Part shown: piece by piece, positions 27,474 to 43,599 of the stretch
How the letters are laid out: each line of letters starts with the position of its first letter
Numbering within the stretch: the stretch's first letter is position 1
Assembly (NCBI GenBank): GCA_964448095.1
Contig: CAYUUT010000002.1
Coordinates: forward strand, 27,959-91,958
Length of the DNA: 64,000 bases
Direction: 5' to 3'
From: an uncultured Candidatus Saccharibacteria bacterium
Lineage (GTDB): Bacteria > Patescibacteriota > Saccharimonadia > Saccharimonadales > UBA10212
Translations under genes and position numbers: made by a program
Notes under the pieces: model-generated
Told to the model about the DNA's origin: nothing
Seen by the model: the letters and a program-made list of their open reading frames with translations, nothing else
Database searches by the model: none

Positions 27474-27505
27474 CGTCAATTGATAGAGTCTAGGATGCTT
27501 ATAAT

Positions 27506-27581: not shown

Positions 27582-27732
27582 AGCACTTGGCTTTAATTCG
27601 CCATTAGCATAGCACATTTCGTATCTGGACAACAGGGGTAGAGCTGGGGCGGTTTTTAGTTTGCATAAACTTCCAAGCCAACAGATAATGTAAGCGAAAG
27701 CATCATGAAATTACAGATTAATCACTTTGGGC

Positions 27733-28989
27733 ATGTTGTTCAAGCGTAGTTCCAGCCCGGCAGGCAAGGGCAGCCAGGCTTCCTGGCTGGAAGGCATGGC
27801 GGTCAGCCGTCAGGTGATGAAGAACAGCAAAAAGAGTTCGGATTTTATCCTGAGCGTAATCCAGGATGGCGTAGTAATGGTTAACCGCGAGAACCTTATC
27901 CAGCTATTCAACCCCGGCGCCAGCGCCATCACCGGCTGGCCGGCCAACGAGGCGGTCGGACTGGATTTTCATAACGTCTTGCCGATAACCGACGAGCACG
28001 GCGTAGCATATCCGCCGGCCAACCATCCTTTTGCCCAGGCTTTAGCCACTAATAAAACCGTCCGCGACAGCAAAGGCTGGCTGGCTACCCGCGGCGGAAA
28101 AAAAATTCCGGTATCAATCATTGTGTCGCCGCTAGTTACCGACAAAGACCAGATAGCCGATACAGTAGTAGGCATCGTCCGTGATACCGCCAGCGAAAAA
28201 GCTGAGGAAAAGCAGCGCTCAGATTTTATTAGTACCGCCAGCCACGAAATGCGCACGCCGGTGGCGGCCATTGAGGGTTATTTGGCTCTGGCGCAGAATC
28301 CTAAAATCGCAAAGATTGACCCTAATGCCCGCAACCTGCTTGAAAAAGCCTCAGCCTCCACTAAGCACCTTGGGGTGTTGTTCCAGGACTTACTCACCAG
28401 CTCGCGCGCCGAGGACGGCCGGCTGGCCAGCTACCCTAAAGTCGTCGAGGTCGGCGAGCTAGTGCAGCAAGTGGCCGATGCCGGACGCTTCAACGCCCGC
28501 AAGAAAAATCTTGAGCTGCGCTACGTGCTTAGCAACGACAACGATGTCAGTGGCGCTAAAGTCGTCCGGCCGCTTTATTTCGCCAACGTTGATCCCAACC
28601 GCCTGAGCGAAGTCATGCAGAATCTCGTCGATAACGCCATAAAATATACCCCGGAAGGCTCAATCACCATGCGCCTTACCGGCGACGGCTCGACTGTCCA
28701 GATTCAAATTCAAGATACCGGCTCCGGTATTGCTTCGGAGGATATTCCTCATCTATTCCAGAAATTCTACCGGGTGGATAGTTCTCTGACGCGTAGTGTT
28801 AGCGGCACCGGCCTGGGCCTGTTCATCAGCCGCAAAATTATCGAGATGTACCAGGGACGAGTCTGGGTTGAAAGCGAACTCGGCAAGGGTAGCACCTTCT
28901 TTATCAACCTGCCACGCCTTAATACCGACCAGGCTCTGGCAACACAACGCCAGCAAAGCGCCAACTCTAGTCCGCTGGATACCCACTAG
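27733..28989 (+). CDS. PAS-domain sensor histidine kinase
   Basis: H-box FISTASHEMRTP, N-box LVDNAIKYT, G-boxes DTGSGI and GTGLGLFISRKI. Confidence 0.85.
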   Translation: MLFKRSSSPAGKGSQASWLEGMAVSRQVMKNSKKSSDFILSVIQDGVVMVNRENLIQLFNPGASAITGWPANEAVGLDFHNVLPITDEHGVAYPPANHPFAQALATNKTVRDSKGWLATRGGKKIPVSIIVSPLVTDKDQIADTVVGIVRDTASEKAEEKQRSDFISTASHEMRTPVAAIEGYLALAQNPKIAKIDPNARNLLEKASASTKHLGVLFQDLLTSSRAEDGRLASYPKVVEVGELVQQVADAGRFNARKKNLELRYVLSNDNDVSGAKVVRPLYFANVDPNRLSEVMQNLVDNAIKYTPEGSITMRLTGDGSTVQIQIQDTGSGIASEDIPHLFQKFYRVDSSLTRSVSGTGLGLFISRKIIEMYQGRVWVESELGKGSTFFINLPRLNTDQALATQRQQSANSSPLDTH

Positions 28990-29052
28990 GCATGGGCTGT
29001 AAAAATGATACAATGATAACCATAAGCGAAGATAACAGATTGAAGACCCCTG

Positions 29053-29865
29053 ATGCCTAAAATACTATTAGTAGAAGACGATAACAGCCTAAGGGAGATT
29101 TTTGAGCTGCGGCTGCAGGCCGAGGGCTATCAAACCCTGACTGCCGGCGACGGTGAAGAAGCCTTGGTAAAGGCTATGAAGGAGAAGCCGGATCTTATCA
29201 TCTGCGACGTTATGATGCCCCGGATGAGCGGTTTTGAGATGCTGGAGACCCTGCGCAATTCGCCGGACATGGCCGGCACTATGGTCATAATGATGACCGC
29301 TCTGGGGCAGGCCGAAGATCAAGCTCGCGGCGCTAAGCTGGGCGTGGTAAAGTATTTAGTGAAATCTCAAGTTACCTTGGAAGATTTCGCCCGCGTAGTC
29401 AGCGACGTCGTAAAGCTGGGCCCCGGCGCAAACGCGCCAGCCGGCCAAACGCCCGCCGCAACTAACGAAGTTTCCCAAGCAAATAATAAATTAGAAAGCG
29501 AGAACCCCATGGACGATCCATCAACTAATCCGATGCCCGGCGCGCCAACTCCGCCGGCTGGCCCCGCTGGCGATGCTAACCCCATCACTAGCCCGGACCC
29601 CAGCCCAATGGGCGATGGCCAACAAAGCACTGCTGACGAGCAAAGCTCGGTAGCCAGCCAAGTTAACAGCTTTGCTAGCACGCCAGCTACTCCTAGCGAT
29701 TCAGCTGCCCCAACCGTGGGCGGTGGAATGACCTCAACCGACCCAGTAGCAGCCGAACCCGCTGAACACGATGATGTGCCAGTGAGCACTCCACCGGTTG
29801 ATCCAACCACGCCAACTGATCCAGCAGCCCCGCCTGCAGATCCTACAGTTCCACCGGCCGTCTAA
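29053..29865 (+). CDS. response regulator: receiver domain plus about 150-aa Pro/Thr/Ala-rich tail, no output domain
   Basis: KILLVEDD, LIICDVMMPRMSG, MMTA, YLVKS. The tail reads ...PPVDPTTPTDPAAPPADPTVPPAV. Confidence 0.8.
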   Translation: MPKILLVEDDNSLREIFELRLQAEGYQTLTAGDGEEALVKAMKEKPDLIICDVMMPRMSGFEMLETLRNSPDMAGTMVIMMTALGQAEDQARGAKLGVVKYLVKSQVTLEDFARVVSDVVKLGPGANAPAGQTPAATNEVSQANNKLESENPMDDPSTNPMPGAPTPPAGPAGDANPITSPDPSPMGDGQQSTADEQSSVASQVNSFASTPATPSDSAAPTVGGGMTSTDPVAAEPAEHDDVPVSTPPVDPTTPTDPAAPPADPTVPPAV

Positions 29866-29890
29866 GCACAATTGCCTTTTAGGCAGTTAA

Positions 29891-29919
29891 AAACCCGCCC
29901 GCAAAGAGGCGGGTTTTTA
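29891..29919 (+). terminator. intrinsic terminator
   Basis: AAACCCGCC-cgcaaaga-GGCGGGTTTTT. Confidence 0.8.
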
Positions 29920-29946
29920 ACTGTTTCAAGATATAATGTTTATCTG

Positions 29947-31257
29947 ATGAGTAACGGAGTTTCAATTGTCGCCATAGTCGGGCGGGCCAATGTTGGTAAA
30001 TCCAGCCTGTTTAATGCTATCATCGGCCGTCGTGAAGCTATTGTGGCTGATGAGCCGGGCACAACCCGCGACAACGTTACCGCCAAAGCCAACACCGACG
30101 AAAAGGACTTCTGGCTGGTAGACACCGCCGGTCTAAAAAGCGCCGCTGACGACTTTGAACTAACGATCCAACAGCAAATTAGCGAAGCCGCCGCCAGCGC
30201 CGATGTGATCTTAGTAGTAACCGAGGCTAATGTTCCGGTCACGGAAGAGGATAGGCGGATAGCCAAACTGGCGCTAAAGACCAAAAAACCGGTGCTGCTA
30301 GTAATCAATAAAGCCGACAAAAATTCACGCTTAGATTTCAATGACTGGCTCAAACTGGGCATTAAACCGGTGTTTGCCACCAGCGCCAGCCAGAAAAGGG
30401 GCATTTTGGAGCTTTTAGAGGGCCTTGGGGGCCATTTACCCCATAAAACCATAAAAGACCACAAGCACTTTAGTGTAGCCCTCCTGGGACGCCCAAATGT
30501 CGGCAAGTCGGCATTATTCAATAGCTTAAGCAATAAACAGCAGGCAATCGTGTCATCTAGAGCCGGAACCACCAGAGATGTCAACCGCTCCAGGGTTAGA
30601 TACCATGAACAGGAAATTGAGCTGATGGATACTGCGGGCATCCGCCGCAGCGGCAAAATCGAGCGCGGCGTCGAACAGTTTAGCGTACTGCGCACTATAG
30701 CGGCCATTGAAGAAGCTGATGTCTGCTTAGTCTTATTGGACGTAAATGAATTAGGCGTCCAACTGGACCAAAAAATTGCCGGCATGGTCGTGGAGGCTGG
30801 CAAGGGTTTGGTGCTGGTCGTCAGTAAGTGGGATGCGTTAGATAAGGACGCTTATACTCGTGACCAGCTGGCCAAACGCATCAGTGGCGAGTTTGTATTT
30901 GTACCGTGGGCGCCGTTGATATTTACCAGCGCCGTAACCGGTCAAAATGTTACTAAGATTTTTGACTTAGTAACGGAAATATCCGCGGCCCGTAAAACCA
31001 GGTTCAAAACCAGCGAGCTCAACCAGTGGCTGCGCCGCAGCGTCGACGCCCACCCGCCAGCCGGTTTGAAAAATCGGGCGCCCAAGCTCAACTATGTCGT
31101 TCAGGAAGACGACCAGGGCATGCCTAATTTCAAGATTTTTGGCGCTCACACTAAATTCCTGCACTGGAGTTATAAAAGATACTTGGACCGGACTTTCCGC
31201 GAACAGTGGCCAATGATTGGCACGCCCTTAAAGTTCTGGTTCATTGAAAAGCATTAG
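29947..31257 (+). CDS. der: ribosome-associated GTPase Der (EngA)
   Basis: Two GTPase domains (GRANVGKSSLFN and GRPNVGKSALFN; DTAG x2; NKAD / SKWD). Start moved to ATG 29947, downstream of the terminator. Confidence 0.9.
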   Translation: MSNGVSIVAIVGRANVGKSSLFNAIIGRREAIVADEPGTTRDNVTAKANTDEKDFWLVDTAGLKSAADDFELTIQQQISEAAASADVILVVTEANVPVTEEDRRIAKLALKTKKPVLLVINKADKNSRLDFNDWLKLGIKPVFATSASQKRGILELLEGLGGHLPHKTIKDHKHFSVALLGRPNVGKSALFNSLSNKQQAIVSSRAGTTRDVNRSRVRYHEQEIELMDTAGIRRSGKIERGVEQFSVLRTIAAIEEADVCLVLLDVNELGVQLDQKIAGMVVEAGKGLVLVVSKWDALDKDAYTRDQLAKRISGEFVFVPWAPLIFTSAVTGQNVTKIFDLVTEISAARKTRFKTSELNQWLRRSVDAHPPAGLKNRAPKLNYVVQEDDQGMPNFKIFGAHTKFLHWSYKRYLDRTFREQWPMIGTPLKFWFIEKH

Positions 31258-31272
31258 GTTTAGAATAAATTA

Positions 31273-31908
31273 ATGGCGTTATTTCAAAAAAGACCCGATA
31301 CCAGCAGCCGAGTACCGCTTTATAGCGTCGGTGCCCATAAGACCGTACTAATTATCGGCTTGGGCAATCCGGAGAAAAAGTACGATGGTACACGTCACAA
31401 TATAGGTTTTGCTGTGCTGGATGAATTCGCTAAACAGAACGATTTTCCGGAGTGGATAGTCAAAAAGGACCTGAAATGTCACCTAGCCAGCCTCACTATG
31501 GGAGAAAACCGGGTGGTCTTATGCAAGCCGACAACCTTTGTGAATAACAGCGGTGAGGCCGCCCAGGCGGTGCAGCATTTTTACCGGGTTTATAATGGGC
31601 AGACGCTGGTGGTTTATGATGAACTGGCCATTCCGTTCGGCCAACTTCGTAGCCGCCTGGGTGGCAGTGACGCCGGCCATAACGGTGTTAAATCACTTAC
31701 TCAGCATATTGGCGACGATTATGGCCGGCTGCGCGTCGGCATCGGCAATGAAATAGCCGAAAAGGCCGATGCTGCCGGCTTTGTACTGGGCAAATTCAGC
31801 AAAGAAGAGCAGGGCAAATTACCGGGAATTATCAAAGAAGCCGGCGTTTTAATTACTGAATATATATTTAGCGGCCAACTGGATCCCGACACCCGTACAA
31901 TCGCCTAA
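31273..31908 (+). CDS. pth: peptidyl-tRNA hydrolase
   Basis: LIIGLGNPEKKYDGTRHNIGF and GHNG. Confidence 0.9.
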   Translation: MALFQKRPDTSSRVPLYSVGAHKTVLIIGLGNPEKKYDGTRHNIGFAVLDEFAKQNDFPEWIVKKDLKCHLASLTMGENRVVLCKPTTFVNNSGEAAQAVQHFYRVYNGQTLVVYDELAIPFGQLRSRLGGSDAGHNGVKSLTQHIGDDYGRLRVGIGNEIAEKADAAGFVLGKFSKEEQGKLPGIIKEAGVLITEYIFSGQLDPDTRTIA

Positions 31909-31920
31909 AATCTTAGAAAC

Positions 31921-32330
31921 CTAAAAGCCTCCAGAGGGGGTGGGCACCGCTGGAGGCTATTACACCCTTCAACCCACCGTAAGCGAAGCTGCGAAAACTG
32001 CTAAAAAGCAAAGTTATTCGAGCCGGTACTAATCCGAAGATTAGAACGCATTCCGTGAGAAACTCGCTTACCCACGTTGAACGGGGAGAGAGTTAAAGGG
32101 GTTAGTTTGCTTAAGAGCCCGGACCCTTTTTGCTATTTCTTAGCTTAACCATTTGTAATGCAAGCGCCTGGCTTTTATACTAAGAAACAAGAAAAAGGGG
32201 CCGGATTGAACGTTTAAGTGGAGGGTATCAACTTAGACGTCCATAACTCTTAAACAATCTAACAAATGTTAGAAATGGGGGTATAAGGTACGTAAGTTTC
32301 CACTAATGAAACTTACAGATTGCAATTTTA
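31921..32330 (-). ncRNA. unassigned structured RNA candidate (strand and ends tentative)
   Basis: 460-bp ORF-free gap. It contains a UUCG-capped 6-bp hairpin (32029-32044), a 9-bp hairpin (32291-32315), a long-range helix (32000-32013 with 32126-32144), and an interleaved pseudoknot-capable 3' end followed by U4 on the minus strand. Confidence 0.35.
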
Positions 32331-32372
32331 GCAAAAAAGTGTCCTGAAGTCAAGACTAAAAAATATACCGCA

Positions 32373-33236
32373 ATGAAAGTCAATACTCTTACGCTTAACG
32401 GTCCTGGTTATCCGGCAATCCTGAAGGATATCCACCAACCGCCAAAACAGTTATTTTATATTGGAGCCCCGCCTGCGCAGTGGCTCGGCCGCCCCAAAGT
32501 AGCGGTTGTTGGCAGCCGCAAAATGACGAGCTACGGTAAGGCGGTGACCGAAAGCCTGGTGTCGGAACTGGCTAGGGCGGGGATTGTGATTGTCAGCGGC
32601 TTGGCTTACGGCATCGACGCCACAGCCCACCGGGCAGCCCTGGACGCCGGCGGTCTGACGGTTGCGGTTTTGGGAACCAGTGTTACAGACATTTCACCCT
32701 CTGGCCATATTGGATTAGCTCAGGAAATTATTAACCATGGAGGGACAATTCTTAGCGAATACGCCGCCGGCAGCCCGGCTTTTGCCGGCAACTTCGTCAT
32801 TCGCAACCGGATAGTTAGCGGCCTCTGTGACATTCTTCTAGTCACCGAGGCCGCGCTAAAGAGTGGCAGTCTACACACAGCCCGTTTCGCGCTGGAGCAG
32901 GGAAAGACGGTCATGACCGTACCTGGTAGCATTCTCACCCCTAGCAGCGAAGGCTGCAACAACTTAATTAAAAGTGGCGCTATTCCGGTAACGGATGCAG
33001 AAGATGTTTTCTTCGCCCTCAAAATCAATCCAGGTAAGCAAAAACTCGCCCTTGAGTTTCATGGTACAGACGAAGAAGAGCAAATCTTGCAACTAATCAG
33101 GGATGGCCTTGCCGGTCAGGAAGAGCTAGCTCTAGCTTCCGGCCTGGACGGCTCACAGATTGCCGGCACGCTGACCAGCCTAGAACTGCGCGGCCATATC
33201 CGCCCAGCCGGTTCGGGCAACTGGCTCGCGAACTAG
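32373..33236 (+). CDS. dprA: DNA-processing protein DprA
   Basis: VVGSRKMTSYGKAV...IVSGLAYGIDATAHRAAL. Confidence 0.85.
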   Translation: MKVNTLTLNGPGYPAILKDIHQPPKQLFYIGAPPAQWLGRPKVAVVGSRKMTSYGKAVTESLVSELARAGIVIVSGLAYGIDATAHRAALDAGGLTVAVLGTSVTDISPSGHIGLAQEIINHGGTILSEYAAGSPAFAGNFVIRNRIVSGLCDILLVTEAALKSGSLHTARFALEQGKTVMTVPGSILTPSSEGCNNLIKSGAIPVTDAEDVFFALKINPGKQKLALEFHGTDEEEQILQLIRDGLAGQEELALASGLDGSQIAGTLTSLELRGHIRPAGSGNWLAN

Positions 33237-33297
33237 CACGAGCCCCTAACTTTCCGCCGGACTCGAGACGAGCCTAAAGTCCTTTGTTGAGCGAGCC

Positions 33298-33416
33298 CTA
33301 CTTTCGACAGAGATTCAACGGAGGCGCAGCCGGTTGGGTGCTGAGCGGAGATGCGATGATTCTTTCGCAGCTCAGGCGAAGCACCCTCCGCGCGTGAGCG
33401 GCTCTGGAGAGAGTAG
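33298..33416 (-). repeat. conserved structured intergenic element, copy B (inverted orientation)
   Basis: The reverse complement shares CCGCTCACGCGCGGAGG, TGCTTCGCCTGAGCTGC and the 27-nt block GCATCTCCGCTCAGCACCCAACCGGCT with copy C. Confidence 0.75.
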
Positions 33417-33472
33417 CGTGAGCGGCGGTTGCATATATAGGTAAAGGCCTTTACACTGGGCATTTGAAATCT

Positions 33473-35788
33473 ATGGCGAAGAATCTTGTAATTGTTGAAA
33501 GTCCGGCTAAGGCCAAGACCCTCACCGGCTTTTTAGGTAGCGACTACCAGGTAAAAAGCAGTTACGGCCACATCCGTGATTTGCCGGAGCGCAAACTCGG
33601 CGTCGATGTTAAAAAGCATTTTGAGCCTACTTACCAGGTTAGCCCCGATAAAGAGCAGGTGGTCAAGGAGCTAAAGACCGCCGCTAAAGGCAAGCACGTC
33701 TGGCTGGCCAGCGACTCCGACCGCGAAGGCGAAGCCATCGCCTGGCATGTGGCCCACGTGTTGGAGCTCGACCCCAAAAAGACTAAGCGAATTGTCTTTC
33801 ATGAAATTACCAAAAGCGCTGTGACAGAGGCCATCGCCCATCCGAGGACTATCGATATGAAACTCGTGGACGCCCAGCAGGCCCGGCGCATATTGGACCG
33901 CTTGGTGGGTTATGAACTAAGTCCGGTGCTCTGGAAAAAGGTGCGCCGCGGCCTGAGCGCCGGAAGAGTACAGAGCGTGGCTGTGCGTTTGATTGTTGAG
34001 CGCGAGCGCGAGATTAAAGATTTTAAGCCGGAAAGCTCGTTTAAGGTTAGCGCGATATTTGAAGCCGGCAAACACCAGCTGGCGGCGGAGCTGAGTGAAA
34101 AAATCGCTAATCTGACAAGCTCCAAGAAGTTCTTAGAGCACGCCGCTAAGGCCGATTTCAGCGTCGTCAACATCGAACAAAAGCCTGGTAAACGCAATCC
34201 TGGAGCGCCATTCACCACCAGCACCCTGCAACAAGAGGCTGCCCGGCGGCTAGGCTACAGCGTTCGTCAGACCATGACCATCGCCCAAAAGCTTTATGAA
34301 CACGGCCACATCACCTATATGCGTACCGATAGCACTATTTTGTCCGGCTTGGCTATAAATGCCGCTAAGGAGTACATAACCAAGGAATATGGCGCCAAAT
34401 ACAGCCAGGTTCGCCAATACCAGACCAAAAGCCGTAACGCCCAGGAAGCCCACGAAGCCATTCGGCCAACCCAGATTGGCCGGCTAGAGTCCGGCGCTGA
34501 CAGCGGCCAAAAGAAACTTTATGAGCTGATTTGGCGGCGTACTGTAGCTAGTCAGATGGCCGCCGCTGACATCGAAAAAACAGAGGTCAAGATTGATATT
34601 AGCGGCCGCCAGGAGCAATTTTTAGCTACCGGCGAGGTCCTTATCTTTGACGGCTTTTTAAAAGTTTACGGTGGCGGCAAGGACGACATGATTCTGCCAC
34701 CGCTCGAAAGTGGCCAGAAACTACGGCTGAAATCGGCCGGCGCCTTGGAAACTTACAGTCGGCCGCCGGCTCGCTACGGTGAAGCGTCATTAGTCAAAAA
34801 ACTCGAAGAACTGGGCATTGGCCGCCCCAGCACTTACGCGCCGACTATCGGTACCATCCAAGATAGAGGTTATATCGAGAAAAAGGATTTGGAAGGCGAA
34901 GCCCGTCAGCTCCGAGAAATCACCCTAAATGGTTCTAAAATAACTGAGCAGACCCAAGAGGTTACCGTTGGTGCCGACCGCGCCAAACTGGTGCCCACGC
35001 CTCTGGCCGATATCGTCACCGATTTCCTGGTTAAATACTTCGGTGAAATCCTCAATTATGACTTCACCGCCAAGGCCGAGAACGAACTGGACGACATTGC
35101 CGACGGTAAATTAGCCTGGCAGAAAATGCTCGAGGATTTTTATAAAGGCTTCCACCCCTTAGTAGAGAAGGGGGAGGAAGCCGACCGCGCCGAGGCCGCC
35201 CAGACCCGCCACTTGGGCAAAGACCCTAAAACCGGCAAGCCGGTATACGCCCGCTATGGCCGCTATGGGCCGGTACTGCAGCTAGGTGAGGCCGACCCGG
35301 CGGATAAGGATAATAAAGACATCCCTAAGCCTAAATTCGCGCCGATGCCCGAAGGCGCCGAGCTAGAGACCGTAACCTTGGAGCAAGCACTACCCATGTT
35401 CGCCCTGCCGCGTGAGGTCGGTAAGACCAATGAGGGCCTGGTGATTACCGCTGACATCGGCCGTTTTGGCCCCTATGTAAAGGTAGAGAAGGAATTCTTC
35501 AGTATCAAAGATCACGACCCGTTCACAATCACTGAAGACGAGGCCCTACAGGTTATCAAAGATAAGCAAGTGGCCGCCGCCAAAAGGGTAGTCGCTGACT
35601 GGGGTAAAATCAAAATTTTGCGCGGCCCATACGGACCCTATGTAACCGATGGCACGAAGAATGCCCGAATATCCAAAGAGCAGGATCCAGAGAAGTTAAA
35701 CGAAAGCGCCGCTAAAGAGCTATTAGCCAAGGCGCCAGCCAGCAAACGCGGTAATTTCCGGCGGCGCCGCGGCGCAAAAAAGTCCTAA
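33473..35788 (+). CDS. topA: DNA topoisomerase I
   Basis: LVIVESPAKAKTL, SDSDREGEAI, active-site ITYMRTDS. The basic C-terminus lacks obvious Zn-ribbon cysteines. The ORF track begins at TTG 33464. Confidence 0.9.
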   Translation: MAKNLVIVESPAKAKTLTGFLGSDYQVKSSYGHIRDLPERKLGVDVKKHFEPTYQVSPDKEQVVKELKTAAKGKHVWLASDSDREGEAIAWHVAHVLELDPKKTKRIVFHEITKSAVTEAIAHPRTIDMKLVDAQQARRILDRLVGYELSPVLWKKVRRGLSAGRVQSVAVRLIVEREREIKDFKPESSFKVSAIFEAGKHQLAAELSEKIANLTSSKKFLEHAAKADFSVVNIEQKPGKRNPGAPFTTSTLQQEAARRLGYSVRQTMTIAQKLYEHGHITYMRTDSTILSGLAINAAKEYITKEYGAKYSQVRQYQTKSRNAQEAHEAIRPTQIGRLESGADSGQKKLYELIWRRTVASQMAAADIEKTEVKIDISGRQEQFLATGEVLIFDGFLKVYGGGKDDMILPPLESGQKLRLKSAGALETYSRPPARYGEASLVKKLEELGIGRPSTYAPTIGTIQDRGYIEKKDLEGEARQLREITLNGSKITEQTQEVTVGADRAKLVPTPLADIVTDFLVKYFGEILNYDFTAKAENELDDIADGKLAWQKMLEDFYKGFHPLVEKGEEADRAEAAQTRHLGKDPKTGKPVYARYGRYGPVLQLGEADPADKDNKDIPKPKFAPMPEGAELETVTLEQALPMFALPREVGKTNEGLVITADIGRFGPYVKVEKEFFSIKDHDPFTITEDEALQVIKDKQVAAAKRVVADWGKIKILRGPYGPYVTDGTKNARISKEQDPEKLNESAAKELLAKAPASKRGNFRRRRGAKKS

Positions 35789-35908
35789 ACCAGGCTATTT
35801 ATCCACAATCTTCCCAGATTGACAAAAAGTTTTCTATAAAAATATACATAAACAGATTGTGCCGCGAAGTCGAATTAGTGATACAATATAGTTGATAGCG
35901 AAATATTC

Positions 35909-35937
35909 TTGACTTTTAAAAACTAAAGTTTTATAAT
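35909..35937 (+). promoter_or_regulatory. near-consensus sigma-70 promoter
   Basis: TTGACT (35909-35914), 17-nt spacer, TATAAT (35932-35937). Confidence 0.6.
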
Positions 35938-35987
35938 TGTTATAACCTAAGGCGGAATAACTGCCAATAACAGGGAAGAAAGTTACA

Positions 35988-37031
35988 ATGGACGACAGTA
36001 AGACTAGCAAAAAATTTGACCTTGCCATTGCCGTACAAGACATTTTAAATACGATTGAGCGCGAGCGCGAACGGGAGATAATCGCCCGGCGTTTTGGCCT
36101 GTTTGACCGCCGGGAAACTCTGGAACAAATCGGTGAACTTTTAGGTATTACCCGCGAGCGCGTCCGCCAGCTGGAAAAAGCCGTGCTGACCCGCCTAAAA
36201 AGCACCGCCGAAAAAGATTTGGTACACATCAGTGAAGTCGAGAAAATCCTGGGCGAAGAGCTCGCCGGCATGGGTAAAGTAGCTCGCATCAGCGAAGTTA
36301 CTGCCAAAATCGTTCCGGCTAACGCCAAGGTTGACCAGTCCCGTGTGGCTTTTATTGCCCAACTGGCGCCCAGCGTAGCGGTTATCGACGATAACGACCA
36401 CTTTTATCACGCCATTGGTTTGGCCGCTGACCACACCGAAAAAGCCATCCGCGACCAGGTCAACGCCATTATTGAAGCCATCCAACAGATTGGCAAACCC
36501 ACCGATATCACCACCGTAGCTAAGCAAATTGGCGACGAAGACAAACAACACGTCGAGGCTCTCGCCGGCATCTCCAAGAACCTGGCTACCCTGAACGACC
36601 GCTGGGGCTTAATTAAGTGGCCGATGGTCAACCCCAAGAACATCCGCGACAAAATCTACGTTATCCTGCACGACCACGGCAAGCCGATGCACTTCAGTGA
36701 AATCGCCAAGGCTATCAAAGACAGCGATTTCCGCCGCAAAGACGTCACCACCCAGGCTATTCATAACGAGTTAATCAAAGATAAGCGTTTCGTGCTGATT
36801 GGCCGCGGTATTTATGCTCTCAAAGAGTGGGGCTACAAAAAGGGCACTGTGGCCGATGTTATTGCCGAAGTTCTACGCAAAGAAGGCGGCCCGTTGCACC
36901 GCGACGAAATCGTCCGCCGGGTTCTTAAAAGCCGCCACGTCAAAGAAACCACTATCTTGCTGAATTTGCAGGGAAAACCCCAGTTCAAGCGCGTCGCTAA
37001 GGCGACATACACCTTGGCCGAGCCTAAATAA
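35988..37031 (+). CDS. sigma-70 region-4 HTH protein with two HARE-HTH/delta-like winged-helix repeats
   Basis: EIIARRFGLFDRRETLEQIGELLGITRERVRQLEKAVLTRLK. It also has IYVILHDHGKPMHFSEIAKAI and VIAEVLRKEGGPLHRDEIVRRVL. Confidence 0.6.
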   Translation: MDDSKTSKKFDLAIAVQDILNTIEREREREIIARRFGLFDRRETLEQIGELLGITRERVRQLEKAVLTRLKSTAEKDLVHISEVEKILGEELAGMGKVARISEVTAKIVPANAKVDQSRVAFIAQLAPSVAVIDDNDHFYHAIGLAADHTEKAIRDQVNAIIEAIQQIGKPTDITTVAKQIGDEDKQHVEALAGISKNLATLNDRWGLIKWPMVNPKNIRDKIYVILHDHGKPMHFSEIAKAIKDSDFRRKDVTTQAIHNELIKDKRFVLIGRGIYALKEWGYKKGTVADVIAEVLRKEGGPLHRDEIVRRVLKSRHVKETTILLNLQGKPQFKRVAKATYTLAEPK

Positions 37032-37052
37032 AAACAACCTCTTTGGAGTATA

Positions 37053-39734
37053 ATGAAGGGAGGGAAACCTCTTATGGCGTTATTTGGTAAGGCACAAAAA
37101 ATTAGGGCAGCGCACGAGCATTGCTTATTGATGCTGGAAATCCCGCGCACCAACGACAAAGCGGCGTTATCAGCCGAACAGATGTTGGCGGCACTGCACG
37201 GTATTTTACGCACCAGGCGCGAGCTTAGGACCTCCGGCACCCTGCAGGAGCACATCAGCCTGGAGATTGTGGCTATCGGCCAGCGCATCCGCTTCTTTAT
37301 TTGGACGCCTAAACACCTGCAATCCTTCGTAGAAGGGCAGGTCTATGCCCAGTATCCAACGGTGCAAATTTATGAACAAGACGAAGATTACGCTGACCGT
37401 CAATTACACCATACGGTGGTCCACAGCACTGAGCTGACGCTCACTACCGACGAGACTTTGCCGATAAAAACCTTTCCTAACTTCGAGGTCGACCCCTTGG
37501 CGGCCGTCACTGCGGCGCTGGCCAAACTGGACAAAGAAGACGAGGAAATGTGGATTCAGATTATGAGTCGGCCAATTTCCGATGATTGGCACCGGCGCGG
37601 TGCCCGGATGGTCAGTAGGATTCAGCGCGGCAAAGGAACCTTCGGCGGAGCAGGGGGCAGTACTGTCAGTTACGTCGGCCAGGTTTTTGGCGCCTTGGCC
37701 AAGCCGCCGGAGGGCGGGGTAGGCACCCAGACTAAGGCCCCGGAACTTTCCGAACGCGACAAATCGCGGATTGCGGCTATTCAGGAAAAATCTAATAAGC
37801 TGGGCTACCAGGTCAAAATCCGTTTGCTCTACGCCGGCCACGACCAAACTACGGCCCGCCTGCGGATGCAGGCATTGGTTGGCGCTTTCAAACAGTTCAA
37901 TACTACAAATCTGAATGGTTTTGAGGCCAAAAGCCCGAGCTTCAACCGCGACCGGCAAATCGAATATCAGGCCCGTTTCTTCATCGACCACAGCTACATC
38001 CTTAATATTGAGGAGCTGGCCAGTATCTTCCACCTGCCACATACTTCGGTAGAGACGCCAAATATTCTGTGGGCAACCACCAAAACCGCTGAACCGCCGC
38101 CCAACATTCCCATCCAAGAAGCCGGTAAAGAGACCGAGATGAGCCTGTTCGGCGTTACCAACTTCCGCGGCGACAACACCATTTTTGGCCTCAACCGCGC
38201 TGACCGCGGCCGCCATGCTTATATCCTGGGTCAAACCGGCACCGGTAAATCCGGCGCCTTGGAGCTGTTAACTCTGTCTGACATTTATTACGACCAGGGC
38301 TTCGCGGTGATTGACCCGCACGGCGACTACGCGCAACATGTGTTGAGTTTTATTCCCAAGCGCCGGCTGGACGACGTGGTTTATTTTAACCCGGCCGATA
38401 CCGCCTATCCCATCGGCTTTAATCCGCTGGAGATTTCCGACCCCTCGCTAAAAGGCCACATCAGCTCGGAGTTGGTAGGTGTTCTAAAGAGGTTATTCAT
38501 CGATAGCTGGGGCCCGCGGCTGGAATATATCCTGCGCTATACGCTGCTGGCGCTGTTGGATTACCCCGATTCCACAATGCTGGGAATTACCCGCATGCTA
38601 ACAGAGAAGGACTATCGCCAAAAGGTGATTGCTTACATTGACGACCCGGTGGTTAAAAACTTCTGGGTCCATGAGTTTGCCAGTTGGAATGATAAGTTTG
38701 CCAGCGAGGCTGTGGCGCCAGTACTAAACAAAGTCGGGGCCTTTACCGCCAACCCGATGGTCAGGAATATTATCGGCCAGCCCAAGAGCACCTTCAACAT
38801 TCGTGAGATTATGGACCAAGGCAAGATCCTGGTGGTCAATCTTAGCCGCGGCTTGATGGGCGAAGACAACGCTGGCATTTTGGGCGCCATGATGGTCACC
38901 AAAATCCAGCTGGCGGCTATGGGCCGGGCCGATTTGCCCATGGAGCAGCGCCGGCCGTTTTATCTCTACGTCGACGAGTTCCAGAACTTCGCCACCGACA
39001 GCTTTGCGACTATTCTCAGCGAGGCTCGCAAATATAACCTCAACCTGACTGTCGCCAACCAGTATATTTCCCAGATGGAAGAACCGGTGCGTAACGCCGT
39101 GTTTGGTAACGTTGGCACAATCTTGTGCTTCCGGATTAGTCCCGACGATTCGCCGTTCTTGGAAAAATACTTCACGCCGCAGTTTGAATCTACCGACCTT
39201 ATTCAGCAGCACAGCCGCTTCTTTGTAATTACCATGATGATAAACGACGAAAAGGCCCCGGCGTTCTCGGCCAAGACCCTGAACCTGCCGCAACCTGCCG
39301 AAGATCACACGGCTGAAATAGTTGAGCTTTCGCGCCAACGCTATGCCAAAGAACGCTCGGTAGTCTCCGAAGATGTCCGCTTAGCCGCCGGACTCGACGC
39401 CGCTAACCCTACTAAGTTTGCTTCAGACCCGCAACCCAATTTACGCACCAAGGCACAAGTCCAGCTAAATACTGCTGAGGCGCTCCAGTCTGCCCACTCA
39501 ACTCAAGCCGATAGTCATAAAGTTGGTAGAGTCGCCGCCAGCCTATTTAGGGGCGTAGCTAGCTCTCCTGAGCCCCCTAGCCAGTCAAATCAGCAGTCTG
39601 GCCCGGAAAAGCCCAAGCGTAAGCGCACCCGCCGCGGTAAGCGTAAGGGCGGTGGTAATGCGGCAGAGCAGGCTAAGAAGCCATCAGAGACCGTAACGGC
39701 TACTGAAAACGAACAAGTCATAAGGTTGCGTTAA
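37053..39734 (+). CDS. VirD4/TraD/HerA-like P-loop ATPase with a large soluble N-terminal domain
   Basis: Walker A is ILGQTGTGKSG, followed by VIDPHGDY. Walker B is FYLYVDEFQNF, followed by EARKYNLNLTVANQ. The probable true start is ATG 37074, with SD GGGAGGG 9 nt upstream. Confidence 0.7.
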   Translation: MKGGKPLMALFGKAQKIRAAHEHCLLMLEIPRTNDKAALSAEQMLAALHGILRTRRELRTSGTLQEHISLEIVAIGQRIRFFIWTPKHLQSFVEGQVYAQYPTVQIYEQDEDYADRQLHHTVVHSTELTLTTDETLPIKTFPNFEVDPLAAVTAALAKLDKEDEEMWIQIMSRPISDDWHRRGARMVSRIQRGKGTFGGAGGSTVSYVGQVFGALAKPPEGGVGTQTKAPELSERDKSRIAAIQEKSNKLGYQVKIRLLYAGHDQTTARLRMQALVGAFKQFNTTNLNGFEAKSPSFNRDRQIEYQARFFIDHSYILNIEELASIFHLPHTSVETPNILWATTKTAEPPPNIPIQEAGKETEMSLFGVTNFRGDNTIFGLNRADRGRHAYILGQTGTGKSGALELLTLSDIYYDQGFAVIDPHGDYAQHVLSFIPKRRLDDVVYFNPADTAYPIGFNPLEISDPSLKGHISSELVGVLKRLFIDSWGPRLEYILRYTLLALLDYPDSTMLGITRMLTEKDYRQKVIAYIDDPVVKNFWVHEFASWNDKFASEAVAPVLNKVGAFTANPMVRNIIGQPKSTFNIREIMDQGKILVVNLSRGLMGEDNAGILGAMMVTKIQLAAMGRADLPMEQRRPFYLYVDEFQNFATDSFATILSEARKYNLNLTVANQYISQMEEPVRNAVFGNVGTILCFRISPDDSPFLEKYFTPQFESTDLIQQHSRFFVITMMINDEKAPAFSAKTLNLPQPAEDHTAEIVELSRQRYAKERSVVSEDVRLAAGLDAANPTKFASDPQPNLRTKAQVQLNTAEALQSAHSTQADSHKVGRVAASLFRGVASSPEPPSQSNQQSGPEKPKRKRTRRGKRKGGGNAAEQAKKPSETVTATENEQVIRLR

Positions 39735-39739
39735 GAGCT

Positions 39740-39783
39740 AGTCTGCAGGCCATTGGCCTGCAGACTAAGCTATTTCTTTTTTT
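39740..39783 (+). terminator. strong intrinsic terminator
   Basis: A 12-bp stem AGTCTGCAGGCC-att-GGCCTGCAGACT is followed by a T-rich tract. Confidence 0.8.
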
Positions 39784-39966
39784 AATATCTACCGAACATT
39801 TTACGAACATGATATAGGCATTAAGGCTCGGGTAGTTGCATAGCCAAATATGGTGCTTGGGCAGCCGGGTAGTAAAGACGATAAAATAATTACTAAAAAT
39901 TAAATGGCCGGGCGAAAAATCCGTCGGACAAAAGGCAGGGCAATACCATTTCCAGCCATAGACCAT

Positions 39967-39994
39967 ACGTCGCACAATGTATATTTTGCGACTC
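39967..39994. other. dif-like Xer recombination site at the point of gene-orientation convergence
   Basis: ACGTCGCACAA-TGTATA-TTTTGCGACTC. By hand alignment, 17 of 28 positions are identical to E. coli dif (GGTGCGCATAATGTATATTATGTTAAAT), including the uninterrupted core AATGTATATT. The two arms are near-inverted copies of each other. Confidence 0.6.
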
Positions 39995-40364
39995 TACATA
40001 TTAGTCTCAGGTTGATATGCCAATACCCCCCTAACAGGGTAGTTTCGGCTTAATTGCTTAAAACCAACGCCAAGCTCTACAACTCGCAATATTTATCTTT
40101 AATTAATTATCTATGTCCTAGCCCAGCTGCCGCTACGTCGCAAAAAGCGCGTGAAAAGTCGTAGAGTTTTCCACAGCCTTTCACAGCGATTTGACTTTAG
40201 CCTATTTCATATTTTTGTATATATTTCCCCTGCCTTTCCGCTTTGAACAAAATATTTGACTTTTGGTGTTTTGATATAGAAGTATGTTTTTCCCTGCCCA
40301 ATTATTTAATTAACAATTGTGAACAAAATGCGAACTGAGCAGAGGAGAGAGGGTGCGATGGTCT

Positions 40365-41075
40365 TTAGCTTGGTAACACAAACGTCGATACTAGGTTATC
40401 ATCTTTGAGTTTCTCGTGATATTCAGCCAACGCTTCCAGCTCCTTATTCCCTATCCGCCTATGCTCAAAAAGGAATCTAGCTGCGGCCGTAAGACCGGTT
40501 ACGGAGTTAGCCTTAAAACCATAGTTTTCCAATGACTCCATGCCACCTTCTTCACGATCGAACTTAATGGTAACTGCAACCGGTCTTAAGCCAACATCCG
40601 TAAGTACCCGTGCACCCTCGACTTTCGACTTACCGTCAGTTACAACATCATCCCCTAGACACACGGTTTCACCAGCTTCATAGTCTCCTTCGATCTTCTG
40701 GTGCGATCCATACTCTTTATCTGGCTCATCGACCCGTTCCCAAAGATATGATAGGCCAGCTTCGTAGGCGCCTATAGCCGCGGGTGCTGTAGCAGCCTGA
40801 GCCTTACCAAATACATGGTCAATTGTTATGCCTAAATCCAAAAAACTGGCGGCGTATCCCGATGCTAAGGCCCGACGAAAATCTCGCTGTTGCCCAATAG
40901 ACATTTGGCCACTTCGATCCAATTTGCTGCTGAAAGATAGGCTTGGCCGATCATTGTAGTAATAGGGCGAGTGTCGACCGGATTTAAGGGTCATGCCGCC
41001 TTCTGGAAAGCCAAGAAGACCCCTATCGAACATACCGATTACAATTTGTTCTTCGATCCTTTCAGGTGAAGCCAT
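40365..41075 (-). CDS. pyrE: orotate phosphoribosyltransferase
   Basis: MTLKSGRHSPYYYN and the PRPP motif VCLGDDVVTDGKSK. Confidence 0.75.
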   Translation of the reverse strand: MASPERIEEQIVIGMFDRGLLGFPEGGMTLKSGRHSPYYYNDRPSLSFSSKLDRSGQMSIGQQRDFRRALASGYAASFLDLGITIDHVFGKAQAATAPAAIGAYEAGLSYLWERVDEPDKEYGSHQKIEGDYEAGETVCLGDDVVTDGKSKVEGARVLTDVGLRPVAVTIKFDREEGGMESLENYGFKANSVTGLTAAARFLFEHRRIGNKELEALAEYHEKLKDDNLVSTFVLPS

Positions 41076-41824
41076 TAGGCTGCCCTCTGTTGTAAGCCCT
41101 GTTTGATTTCCTGGACTACTGCCGCATAAGCGGCGGCCGGGTCTTCGGCACCGGTAACCTGACTGCCAATTACCAGAATATCGGCTCCGCCCTCGATGGC
41201 CTGCTGCGGCGTTATGCTACGCTTTTGGTCCTGCGTGTCCGCACCTTTTGACCTTGTCCCTGGAATCATTGCGAACAAGCCGCCCCTGTCTTGGGCGAGG
41301 TCTTTGGCCATCTTAACTTCTAAGCCAGAACAGACAAGTCCGCCAATTCCGGCGTCAGTAGCACGCCGCACTTCTCGCCGGACGACAGTTTTAGGTAAAA
41401 TATGCTCAAATCTTTTTGTTTCCTCTTCTCCTATGGAAGTTAGTAGCGTGACACCCATGACCATAATTCCGGCTTCCGCGGCTATTCTTTGAGCCTCTTT
41501 CATAGAATCAACCCCGGCTCTGGTCCCCATGGTTATGGCCACCGGTGGGTGATCAAGCTCCGCTAAGTTATTTACGATTCCCGCCGTAGTCCTTGGGATG
41601 TCGTAAATCTTAGCATCAGCCACCCAATCCAGATCATTTTCGGCGGCTAAATCCGAACAATATTTCCAGCTGGTGGCGGATTGGAGCTCGAGACCTTCTT
41701 TGACGACCCATGCCCCGGCATTTTTAGCGAGACCCACTAGGGACTCGGCTGTTGATTCTTTGGATGTGTCAATGGCGCACACTATCCTCTCGGCGGCTGA
41801 TAGATTCGGTTGAAGTCCTGGCAT
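41075..41824 (-). CDS. pyrF: orotidine-5'-phosphate decarboxylase
   Basis: IVCAIDT and DAKIYDIPRT (D-x-K-x-x-D). It shares 1 nt with the pyrE start. Confidence 0.75.
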   Translation of the reverse strand: MPGLQPNLSAAERIVCAIDTSKESTAESLVGLAKNAGAWVVKEGLELQSATSWKYCSDLAAENDLDWVADAKIYDIPRTTAGIVNNLAELDHPPVAITMGTRAGVDSMKEAQRIAAEAGIMVMGVTLLTSIGEEETKRFEHILPKTVVRREVRRATDAGIGGLVCSGLEVKMAKDLAQDRGGLFAMIPGTRSKGADTQDQKRSITPQQAIEGGADILVIGSQVTGAEDPAAAYAAVVQEIKQGLQQRAA

Positions 41825-41941
41825 CTTCCCTCTTTCCCCACCAAGTTAGTTTAAGCTAAGTATACTACGCCACTTTTTGATTACTTTGTATATTTTTTAC
41901 AACAGTGTACCCTGCCCGATTTTAACTTGAGTGTCCTGAGC

Positions 41942-42685
41942 CTAGTTAGCGTCACGCCGCAAAAATAGAACCCAGGCCACCGCCCAGCCAACGACCAAAT
42001 AACCGCAAAATACTAGGGCTGCCCGGCCTGGCGCTAAGCTCCCGCCGCCCAGCGCGCCATCTCCAACCAACTGGCTAAGTGAGGTAAACGGCAAGTAAAC
42101 GGCGTTTTTGTTTAGCAGCTGGCTCAGCAGTGGCTCGATAGCCGCGGGAATCGCAAACAGGGCTACAATCGCCCCAACCTGCACGCGTATAAGCGTAGCC
42201 AGCAGCAGCCCGAGCATGGCGTAGGCCCAGCCATAGAACAAGCTGCGCCAAATAACATCTTTGTAATAAATCGTTTGCGATACCAGGACATGTCCGTGGG
42301 CATGCACTCCCAGATAAGTGGCTACCGGAGACAGCACACCGATGATAATGGTCAGAAAGATGGCGTAGCAACTAATAACTAGGATTTTGGACGCCAAGAC
42401 TTTACTTCGACTATTGCTGCTGGTGAGGCTGTACATAATGGTGTTATAGCGGTATTCGTGAGTCATAAACAGAATCGCTATGACAGCACCGAATAACATC
42501 AACCCCAGAGCGCCATAGGTGTCACTGGCCAGCTGACCGGATTCGTGAAGCTCGAACGGCTTTAGGCGCCAGCCTTCGACGTAAAAAGCAATAAAGGCCA
42601 CGAATAGGATAACCAGAGTTGTAATAATATAGGTCGAGCGGATAGTCAGAAGCTTACGGAACTCGGATTTAATCGTCTGCATCAT
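41942..42685 (-). CDS. ABC-2 type transporter permease
   Basis: Six hydrophobic segments. 4-nt overlap with the upstream ATPase gene. Confidence 0.7.
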   Translation of the reverse strand: MMQTIKSEFRKLLTIRSTYIITTLVILFVAFIAFYVEGWRLKPFELHESGQLASDTYGALGLMLFGAVIAILFMTHEYRYNTIMYSLTSSNSRSKVLASKILVISCYAIFLTIIIGVLSPVATYLGVHAHGHVLVSQTIYYKDVIWRSLFYGWAYAMLGLLLATLIRVQVGAIVALFAIPAAIEPLLSQLLNKNAVYLPFTSLSQLVGDGALGGGSLAPGRAALVFCGYLVVGWAVAWVLFLRRDAN

Positions 42686-43599
42686 GATTTTTCGGCCTTC
42701 CCGGTTTTGGCCTGGTACTCTTCTGTCCCTTCGGTTAGCTCCAGAAATACGTCTTCCAGCGAGGCCGCGTGGCTGGCTAGTTCTAGGATTGGCAGACCAG
42801 CGCTAAAGGCTAGTCTGCCTACTTCATCGGTTTTGACACCGTAAACTTTTAGGCCACCGTCATTTTTTTCGAATTTGAGCTTGGTTTTTAGCAACCGCTT
42901 CTCTAGTTCTGAAACTTTGGTGGTACGCACAAAAACACTGGAGTGCGAGCTGCCGCCAATCAGTTTATCCATCGAAGTGTCGGCAATCAGCTTACCTTTG
43001 CCAATGACCACCACGTTATCGGCCATTTGTGACATCTCGCTCAGCAAGTGGCTGGAAACCATCACCCCGCCGCCATTCGCGGCGTATTCACGTAAGAATT
43101 GGCGCAGCCAGGCGATTCCTTCAGGGTCAAGACCGTTAGCCGGCTCGTCTAAAATTAAATACTTAGGGCTGCCCAACAGTGCGGCGGCGATGCCCAGGCG
43201 CTGGCTCATTCCCAAACTAAATTTGCCAGGGCCCTTTTTGGCTACCTCAGTCAAACCGACAATTTCTAAAACTTCATCGACTCGTTTTATAGGGATATTT
43301 CCGGCAGCGGCTAAAATTTTAAGGTGATTTTGGGCGCTGCGAGTTGGGTGAAAAGCCTTGGCTTCCAGCAGGATGCCGACAATCTTTGAAGGCTGTTGGT
43401 ACGACTGCAACGGCTTGCCGTCATAGGTTGTACCGCCGCTGCCAGCATCCAGACCAAGCATTAAGCGCATGGTGGTGCTTTTGCCGGCGCCATTCGGGCC
43501 CAGGAAGCCGGTAACTTTACCGGTCTCTATCTCGAAGGACAGGTTATCGACGGCTTGCTTCTTACGATACGCCTTGCTGAGGTTTTTGGCCTTAATCAT
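42682..43599 (-). CDS. ABC transporter ATP-binding protein
   Basis: GFLGPNGAGKSTT, LSLGMSQRL, LILDEPANGLD. Confidence 0.9.
   Translation of the reverse strand: MIKAKNLSKAYRKKQAVDNLSFEIETGKVTGFLGPNGAGKSTTMRLMLGLDAGSGGTTYDGKPLQSYQQPSKIVGILLEAKAFHPTRSAQNHLKILAAAGNIPIKRVDEVLEIVGLTEVAKKGPGKFSLGMSQRLGIAAALLGSPKYLILDEPANGLDPEGIAWLRQFLREYAANGGGVMVSSHLLSEMSQMADNVVVIGKGKLIADTSMDKLIGGSSHSSVFVRTTKVSELEKRLLKTKLKFEKNDGGLKVYGVKTDEVGRLAFSAGLPILELASHAASLEDVFLELTEGTEEYQAKTGKAEKS

Follow-up and report, generated by a model that had tools for sequence, protein, structure and literature searches.

The DNA analysed here is a 64,000-nucleotide stretch (the window) from the genome of an uncultured Candidatus Saccharibacteria bacterium, in which two long blocks of oppositely oriented genes face each other across a non-coding gap of 630 bp (39735-40364), the largest intergenic region among the gene calls of the window. 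Pfam was run on most of the about 65 gene calls, and the whole window was searched by tblastn with two Xer proteins and with E. coli DnaA. The Pfam-supported open reading frames (ORFs) of the left block (22578-39734) are all plus-strand and those of the right block (40365-63989) all minus-strand; a gene for tRNA-Glu (27506-27581) is the sole minus-strand gene of the left block. Genes on the left side include der, pth, dprA, topA, the gene for a protein with sigma-region-4 and HARE-HTH domains, and the gene for an ATPase resembling type IV coupling proteins (T4CP). Those on the right side include the genes for orotidine-phosphate decarboxylase and an ABC transporter, and the cell-division (dcw) cluster murG-ftsW-mraY-ftsI-mraW-mraZ. 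An earlier annotation, made by looking at the letters only (the sequence-only reading), had described plus-strand and minus-strand coding blocks converging on a 630-bp AT-rich gap; this description is borne out by the Pfam-supported ORFs and by the GC content, which is 0.41 in the gap and 0.505 in the window as a whole.

Within the gap, a 28-bp element at 39967-39994 is, with high probability, the chromosome dimer resolution site (dif) of this genome, as judged from sequence comparisons. The sequence-only reading had also taken it for dif, and this is strengthened by what the comparison of loci documents: the architecture of the site, its pattern of conservation throughout the phylum, recombination junctions formed with filamentous phages, a Xer gene located beside the site in another phylum (Microgenomates), and the convergence on the site of polar motifs similar to the FtsK-orienting polar sequences (KOPS). 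The parts of the element are as follows.

39967-39994, plus strand: 28-bp dif-like core ACGTCGCACAATGTATATTTTGCGACTC, single copy in the window, conserved across species, with inovirus-like junctions in related contigs.
39967-39977, plus strand: left arm ACGTCGCACAA, 11 bp.
39978-39983, plus strand: central region TGTATA, 6 bp.
39984-39994, plus strand: right arm TTTTGCGACTC, 11 bp.

The 28-mer occurs once in the 64 kb, and the next best match, its own reverse complement aside, has 9 mismatches; the uniqueness predicted by the sequence-only reading concerns the entire genome. The inner parts of the arms, GTCGCACAA and the reverse complement of TTTTGCGAC, which is GTCGCAAAA, are equal at 8 of 9 positions, and the full left arm equals the reverse complement of the right one at 8 of 11 positions in the window and at up to 10 of 11 in relatives, in agreement with the earlier description of the arms as near inverted repeats. 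The dif site of E. coli is GGTGCGCATAATGTATATTATGTTAAAT (table in PMC2731167). The segment AATGTATATT is common to the two sites; over the full 28 positions 17 agree, and over the middle 18, 15 do. The 11-6-11 Xer layout and the core shared with E. coli dif, both proposed from the sequence, are retained. According to our own estimate, a match of 15 out of 18 is expected about 0.04 times per 128 kb. When the palindrome criterion of Kono et al. for the genome-wide prediction of dif is applied (over 4 complementary pairs when positions 7-12 are set against 17-22), the window 28-mer shows 5 pairs out of 6.

Relatives of the locus were recovered through the 893-amino-acid (893-aa) protein encoded to the left of the gap; they come from 50 species-level genomes, almost every one of which bears the label Candidatus Saccharibacteria or Saccharimonadales, and this places the window in the same candidate phylum. 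Two of the related loci lie on large records, at about 226.6 kb of 669.3 kb in OZ246413.1 and at about 80.2 kb of 776.5 kb in JBEKOJ010000001.1, positions which are uninformative without dnaA. In about 40 species the 28-mer is found mostly with 0 to 4 mismatches, while the neighbouring protein is only 60-87% identical, and identity drops to background immediately beyond the edges of the 28-mer, which therefore stands out as a sharp island. Each related locus, of about 20 kb, contains one full copy, always in the same orientation relative to the upstream gene and located, in most cases, about 100-900 bp (up to 1.6 kb) after it. The convergent orientation of the flanking genes at the 28-mer is found in 28 out of 28 species for which both flanks are available, despite their differing right-hand neighbours.

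The arms are nearly invariant, with the forms [A/G][C/T]GTCGCACAA and TTTT[G/A]CGAC, and are combined with 7 central hexamers (TGTATA, TATATC, TGCATA, TGTAGA, GATAGA, TATACC and TGTACC). Constant arms around a variable centre are the pattern expected of the core site of a tyrosine recombinase; in proteobacterial dif sites the central region is conserved within, not between, species (PMC2731167). At position 9 of the arms an asymmetry, C on the left (CACAA) and A on the right (CAAAA), is kept almost everywhere, and the site therefore has a conserved polarity. A locus from Beckwithbacteria, in another candidate phylum, carries ATGTCGCACAATGTATCTTATGCGACAT.

Copies of the site are also present in viral sequences. 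A scan of IMG/VR for GTCGCACAANNNNNNTTWTRCGAC returned at least 120 contigs with one match each, 80 of which were examined: the outer arm bases are conserved there too, and the central hexamers are very diverse, as would fit recognition by some host factor present throughout these bacteria. In five of these contigs (L064, L107, L112, L139 and L144) a second copy is found 5.3-5.6 kb to the left, in direct orientation. In all five, the left arm and the central hexamer of this second copy are identical to those of the full site and its right arm is degenerate. The interval between the two copies contains about 10 small genes; it was annotated in L064, L107, L112 and L139. In three of these, L064, L107 and L139, the products include a replication initiator of the rolling-circle type (Rep; PF23343, phrog_3419) and a Zot-like assembly ATPase (PF05707, phrog_197), which are hallmarks of filamentous phages; the single protein tested from the L112 element matched nothing. 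No XerD-like recombinase or integrase was detected in the elements between the copies.

In L107 the conserved non-coding module that surrounds the site (described below) is split: its left GAAC box precedes the left junction by about 185 bp, while past the right junction its DnaA box is found at +210 and its right GAAC box at +362. The insertion point of the phage is therefore precisely the 28-mer. L139 and L144 may be tandem arrays, since their left flank is similar to the right end of the element. The junction pattern of the five contigs matches that described for two elements exploiting Xer, the TLC-phage of Vibrio and the gonococcal genetic island (GGI), in which the XerC-side arm and the centre are kept and the XerD-side arm is divergent (PMC5357621). 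The junctions suggest that strand exchange does occur at the site, a feature that defines membership in the dif class. Inoviruses have been reported in candidate-phyla bacteria (PMC6813254), and a whole-word search of that article for 'dif' and 'Xer' gave no match.

Many of the viral copies of the site closely precede terminase genes. Tailed-phage contigs (L056, L058, L063, L074, L101, L104, L115, L152 and others) carry one full, two-armed, intergenic site, immediately upstream of the small and large terminase genes, and three terminase families are represented among them. Such a copy might be used for integration at the host dif, for the resolution of multimers of a circular prophage, or for circularisation after injection, as is loxP in phage P1.

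The viral copies bring up another explanation, namely that the 28-mer is a mere attachment site (attB/attP) of mobile elements, without any role in dimer resolution or at the terminus. The direct evidence of recombination does come from the inovirus-like elements and the phage contigs carrying the site, and one of the latter, L069, encodes a weak tyrosine recombinase of its own at a distance of about 600 bp from it. However, the site is maintained nearly unchanged in about 40 species, with or without an element, and selection on the host is therefore required; the integrated elements have no detectable integrase; the gene linked to the site in Microgenomates is of the Xer family, not of the phage-integrase type; the KOPS-like polarity and the orientation of genes both switch at the site; and 15 of the 18 middle positions are those of canonical dif. 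An attachment site and nothing else is, on these grounds, improbable.

The identification of the 28-mer as dif draws further on the polarity of G-rich motifs. Motifs pointing toward a site are a signature of dif and not of an origin, and the KOPS consensus of E. coli is GGGNAGGG. Three such motifs flank the core.

39934-39940, plus strand: GGCAGGG, KOPS-like, directed toward the core from 33 bp to its left; beyond it, where the polarity switches, no further plus-strand copy follows.
40228-40234, minus strand: GGCAGGG (CCCTGCC on the plus strand), the first KOPS-like motif right of the core, located in tandem unit 1 and pointing at the core; part of the conserved TTTCCCCTGCC block.
40292-40299, minus strand: GGGCAGGG, which agrees fully with the KOPS consensus of E. 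coli, GGGNAGGG, located in tandem unit 2 and pointing at the core; conserved block.

To the left of the core, GRGCAGG occurs in the window 16 times on the plus strand and never on the minus strand; to the right, it occurs 9 times on the minus strand and never on the plus strand (25 toward the core, 0 away). The two forms of this motif rank first and fourth among 2099 7-mers tested for polarity. Plus-to-minus counts for GGNAGGG are 12:1 on the left and 0:7 on the right (19 toward, 1 away), with the switch falling between 39934 and 40228 and the best switch point just after 39934; those for GGGNAGGG are 5:0 and 0:3. Four of the left-side GGNAGGG copies, at 3741, 12712, 21332 and 22086, are antisense within minus-strand genes, two of them supported by Pfam, and the polarity therefore follows the DNA strand, not the gene. 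The GGCAGGG block located about 30 bp upstream of the 28-mer is conserved across species. When 39 loci were pooled, excluding the module, 195 motifs pointed toward the site and 45 away, with ratios of 8:1 in opposite-strand genes and 27:4 in intergenic regions, all counts being inflated by orthology; the pooled 7-mer polarity was set aside as evidence because of this inflation by orthologous coding sequence.

The 28-mer is one block of a non-coding module of about 540 bp (39794-40335), which shows a fixed spacing in about 35 species (L005-L053). The sequence-only reading took in the 28-mer and left the larger module unrecognised. The other blocks are listed below, with positions relative to the core.

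39794-39808, plus strand: left GAAC box GAACATTTTACGAAC, at about -173; between -160 and -219 in 28 of 34 loci, most at -160 to -186.
40022-40040, plus strand: conserved block ATACC..TAACAGGGT, 28 bp right of the core, seen in the conservation profile and alignment.
40167-40175, plus strand: DnaA-box-like TTTTCCACA, preceded by the conserved block GTGAAAAGT.
40189-40330, plus strand: two tandem units of about 65-76 nt (direct repeat D1), conserved across species.
40321-40335, plus strand: right GAAC box GAACAAAATGCGAAC, at +354, in direct orientation with the left box; right end of the module.

The GAAC boxes form a direct pair, GAACA-N5-CGAAC, at about -173 and +354. The left one has the form GAACAttttaCGAAC across species, and the right one, of the form GAACAaaatRCGAAC, is found in 34 of 34 loci at +329 to +405, mostly at +329 to +380. 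Only two exact matches to GAACANNNNNCGAAC exist in the window, the left box and its partner at 40321. The block following the core appears in the module layout as ATACC..TAACAGGGG at +55. Of the 34 loci, 33 have either TTATCCACA or TTTTCCACA at 171-263 bp past the core, the majority at 183-213 bp, 25 of them with the exact DnaA-box consensus TTATCCACA. Each tandem unit consists of ATTTGACTTT, with a -35-like box TTGACT, followed by TATGTTTTT, CCCTGCC and an AT-rich stretch. Altogether the module holds three G-rich KOPS-like boxes, all aimed at the core. The segment between the DnaA box and the right GAAC box measures 212-234 nt in all 29 species measured, for which RNAalifold returned no consensus RNA structure on either strand.

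Exact copies of TTATCCACA occur in the window at 35799-35807 and 10417-10425, only on the plus strand and upstream of canonical promoters. They lie 13-27 bp upstream of promoter-like TTGACA/TTGCAT boxes, for instance before the sigma/HARE-HTH gene. In related loci the same 9-mer is found at about -4100 to -4800 and at about +8700 to +8900 from the site, and the exact copies in the 19-kb flanks are mostly located at conserved intergenic spots. The 9-mer probably acts as a transcription-factor site, and these positions suggest that DnaA, or another factor, is a transcription regulator in these genomes.

The composition of the module was also considered in the light of a replication origin or origin-like element, the palindrome being then a binding site for an origin-associated protein. 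The consensus DnaA box that almost every species has about 200 bp away from the 28-mer, the two tandem repeat units and the AT-rich stretch would agree with this, as would the Beckwithbacteria locus L051, whose site lies within an AT-rich gap of 1.35 kb, with divergent genes on its two sides and a DnaA-box-like TGTGGAAAA close by. Against an origin, one conserved DnaA box only is present, and the window and the loci yielded neither dnaA nor dnaN; all genes over 17 kb to the left and 24 kb to the right are oriented toward the gap, and would all be head-on to forks leaving an origin; the G-rich polar motifs point toward the gap, opposite to what is seen at origins; and the DnaA-box 9-mer is found upstream of ordinary promoters as well (35799, 10417). 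With a single box, no dnaA, and both genes and polar motifs converging on the gap, an origin is very unlikely. A dnaA gene downstream of the DnaA box was looked for and rejected, since the plus-strand genes following the module encode an exonuclease, an MFS transporter or a PAP2 protein.

For a module built around dif, a different role may be envisaged: the blocks could form one nucleoprotein assembly, coupling DnaA or another factor to Xer recombination, to translocase loading or to fork arrest, in a reduced genome with maybe a single recombinase acting on symmetric arms. This is proposed as a tentative possibility, on the doubtful side. Its closest counterparts would be the accessory sequences that accompany cer and psi on plasmids; we know of no chromosomal dif site with such a built-in accessory architecture. 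The module is the part that could prove new, the core site being probably of the known dif kind.

On its two sides the gap is bordered by the following features.

37053-39734, plus strand: 893-aa ATPase, T4CP-like (DUF8128, DUF87/HerA, TrwB, TraG; Pfam).
39739-39767, plus strand: intrinsic terminator hairpin of the upstream gene, a 13-bp stem followed by a T-run; its sequence is not kept across species.
40365-41075, minus strand: 236-aa protein without Pfam match, first gene of a variable 'cargo' stretch before the dcw cluster.

Throughout this order of Saccharibacteria the module has the ATPase gene as its conserved neighbour on the left. Its product is a member of the FtsK/HerA superfamily, and at 35988-39734 the gene forms, with the preceding gene for the sigma-70-region-4 and HARE-HTH protein, a conserved pair directly upstream of the site. 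The 28-mer is also present without the ATPase gene, in other clades of Saccharibacteria and in phage contigs; the linkage is therefore regarded as synteny, not as demonstrated function.

This neighbourhood bears on whether the palindrome could be the operator of a transcription factor, or an origin of transfer (oriT) served by the adjacent T4CP-like ATPase. Coupling-protein genes are often located near oriT in conjugative systems, the site follows the T4CP-like gene by a few hundred bp (up to 1.6 kb) in about 40 species, and an inverted repeat of the 9-6-9 type has the typical shape of an operator. Yet no T4CP homologue was found near the site in any of the 80 viral contigs examined (0/80), and the left neighbour is a different one in other clades of Saccharibacteria. 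No relaxase domain was detected by Pfam among the gene calls of the window. One copy per 64 kb, with none upstream of the LexA-like gene, is unlike the distribution of sites for a global regulator, and an operator would have no promoter to control, because the genes around the site converge. Finally, neither operators nor oriT produce duplications of a left arm and central region flanking phages. Either function is, in our view, extremely improbable.

The LexA-like protein, with an S24 peptidase domain, is encoded at 4168-4824; neither the arms of the 28-mer nor a GAAC box is found upstream of its gene. The GAAC boxes were considered as LexA boxes and rejected, as none precedes this gene and both exact copies in the window belong to the module.

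The enzyme that would act on the 28-mer as a dif site was searched for by tblastn over all the DNA retrieved, using as a query the sequence of E. coli XerD. One strong match was obtained, a 316-aa ORF in the Beckwithbacteria locus L051, with 36% identity over 306 aa (E = 1e-45); its product reaches 246 bits with the XerD model and 241 bits with that of XerC. This xer gene abuts the 1.35-kb AT-rich non-coding gap mentioned above, which holds a full and a partial site, at 6810-6837 and 7372-7399, 564 bp apart; in the partial one the left arm is the same, the central hexamer differs by 1 base and the right arm is unrelated. The three closest metagenomic relatives of the L051 protein (L176-L178) have a site with perfect arms 0.8-1.9 kb upstream of xer, and two arm-like half-sites at -263 and -284 from the gene, and in four more distant relatives (L182-L185) a half-site precedes the xer start by 10-35 nt. 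These arm-like half-sites upstream of the Microgenomates xer genes have the sequences ATGTCGCACAAT and ATGTCGTACAAT; their presence in the promoter region may reflect autoregulation by the recombinase. A recombinase gene adjacent to the site was thus observed in Microgenomates (L051, L176-L178), and not in the Saccharibacteria loci.

When scored with NCBIfam models, the linked Microgenomates recombinases are about equal as XerD and XerC (about 190-305 bits), falling under both curated cut-offs, and two of them exceed the cut-off of the archaeal XerA model. A Xer system with a single recombinase is plausible, given the symmetric arms, the linkage of xer to the site in Microgenomates and the equal XerC and XerD scores; the almost invariant asymmetry at arm position 9 points the other way. 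Candidate phyla possess their own Xer-related subgroup of recombinases, named 'Cand' (Smyshlyaev et al. 2021, PMC8138268). The subgroup was defined from candidate phyla, and the passages that deal with it describe proteins and give no DNA target. It would be the most likely family for the enzyme acting at the site, and the Microgenomates recombinases would fit such a group.

Several results weigh against the assignment of the 28-mer as dif. The right arm agrees with the canonical XerD arm TTATGTTAAAT at 5 of 11 positions only. No tyrosine recombinase was detected in the window, either by Pfam or by tblastn with the two Xer proteins, nor at less than 10 kb from the site in any of about 50 loci of Saccharibacteria; the xer gene anticipated by the sequence-only reading was found beside the site in Microgenomates only. 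No relative with an empty site was found, among the fetched loci, for the five occupied ones, and the comparison made for empty sites showed several of the 'viral' contigs to be truncated versions of these elements. Next to dif one would not expect a conserved DnaA box and promoter-like units at 200-330 bp. The polarity counts are partly confounded with the orientation of genes, and the pooled ones inflated by orthology. Lastly, the cumulative GC skew falls through the whole window, with no inflection at 39.9 kb, near which the sequence-only reading had predicted one.

The skew is, however, uninformative at this scale. In a pool of 28 loci the coding-sense skew at four-fold sites is -0.25 for left genes and -0.09 for right genes, on either strand; since opposite-strand genes share the coding-sense skew of their neighbours, no replication-linked skew is measurable here. 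Raw skew, codon-position and four-fold analyses, and the pooled analysis of 28 loci were all uninformative, and GC skew was dropped as a test of the terminus. We therefore infer the terminus from motif polarity and gene orientation. Thus, of the earlier proposal that replication terminates in the gap, the part based on convergence gains indirect support from the convergent genes in 28 species and from the motif polarity, while GC skew gives no signal either way.

Taken as dif, the site would work as follows. A Xer-family tyrosine recombinase of the host would bind the two 11-bp arms, cleave at the edges of the 6-bp central region and exchange strands there, and this exchange would resolve a chromosome dimer into monomers at division. 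The site would be the meeting point of the two replication arms, to which a translocase of the FtsK type would be guided by GRGCAGG and GGNAGGG motifs pointing in from both sides, two or three of these polar motifs being fixed within the surrounding module. Filamentous phages, in which no integrase was detected, would integrate by means of the same site and the same host enzyme. The protein binding the site, the role of FtsK and the ending of replication at the site are what we infer from the comparisons.

Among known systems, the proteobacterial XerCD/dif, as in E. coli, is similar in the 28-bp 11-6-11 layout, in the central TGTATA, in the nearly identical inner arm bases (GCACAATGTATATTTTGC here, GCATAATGTATATTATGT in E. 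coli), in the constant arms with a variable centre, in the single copy (here, in the window) where gene orientation converges, and, together with FtsK and KOPS, in the polar G-rich motifs of the GGGNAGGG family aimed at the site. It differs in that the right arm TTTTGCGACTC of Saccharibacteria mirrors the left arm, whereas a conserved XerD arm, TTATGTTAAAT, is found in the classical sites; the Saccharibacteria arms are more symmetric (8/11, up to 10/11), and their site lies within a conserved module that also holds a DnaA box, a feature that proteobacterial dif does not have. High dyad symmetry of the arms is shared with XerS/difSL of streptococci, XerH/difH of Helicobacter and Campylobacter and XerA/dif of archaea, and a xer gene beside the site, as in xerS-difSL, is seen in the Microgenomates relatives. 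Unlike these systems, Saccharibacteria have no recombinase gene within 10 kb; their site, of 28 bp, is shorter than difSL (31 bp) and the longer difH, and its sequence is closer to classical dif than to either.

The phage elements resemble the integrative mobile elements exploiting Xer (IMEX), such as the TLC-, CTX- and VGJ-phages of Vibrio and the GGI, in being small, in carrying filamentous-phage genes at the site with no integrase detected, and in retaining at the junction the left (XerC-side) arm and the centre, with a degenerate right arm. They differ in their hosts, which are here candidate-phyla bacteria, integration being read in this case from sequence junctions. Also unlike IMEX, tailed-phage contigs carry a full two-armed copy beside the terminase genes; to our knowledge, no described class of IMEX has this arrangement. 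In the literature searched, no paper describes a dif site for Saccharibacteria or Patescibacteria.

If the assignment is correct, the 28-mer and the polar motif provide a sequence marker for the terminus, of help in curating and closing metagenome-assembled genomes and in estimating replication rates from coverage, and the site would account for assembly breaks at this locus. It would also be the docking site of filamentous phages in these bacteria, and suggests a natural, probably neutral, position for inserting DNA into the few Saccharibacteria that can be manipulated. Should one recombinase act on the near-symmetric arms, the system would parallel, in a bacterium with a very reduced genome, the XerA system of archaea.

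Breaks in assemblies are indeed observed close to the site: the Logan contig L002 ends at about window position 39973, and L004, L019, L030 and L039 end 34-215 bp past the site. Contig ends at the 28-mer are possibly caused by branching of the assembly graph, at a sequence common to co-occurring species or phages, or by strain variation to the right.

Other contents of the gap were considered and rejected. An RNA gene is not indicated, as no Rfam family was found in the gap at the gathering threshold or at E <= 10, and no tRNA by ARAGORN. A small protein gene was discarded because conservation is block-wise, without a codon-like pattern, and because the species have no ORF in common after the purine-rich end of the module.

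To the right of the gap, the window contains at 40365-43599 the gene for the 236-aa protein, pyrF and the ABC transporter. In the relatives (L005-L053) the right-hand neighbours are genes for an MFS transporter (on either strand), an exonuclease/GIY-YIG protein, a PAP2 protein, a histidine phosphatase or a 2'-5' RNA ligase, and genes seem to be exchanged particularly often in this interval, which extends from the module to the cell-division cluster. At the opposite end of the window, a region of lower GC content (18-3908; 0.40-0.47) encodes an Eco57I/MmeI-type restriction-modification methylase and, on the minus strand, a protein with a SMODS nucleotidyltransferase domain, similar to those of cyclic-oligonucleotide-based antiphage signalling systems (CBASS-like); it is probably a defence island.

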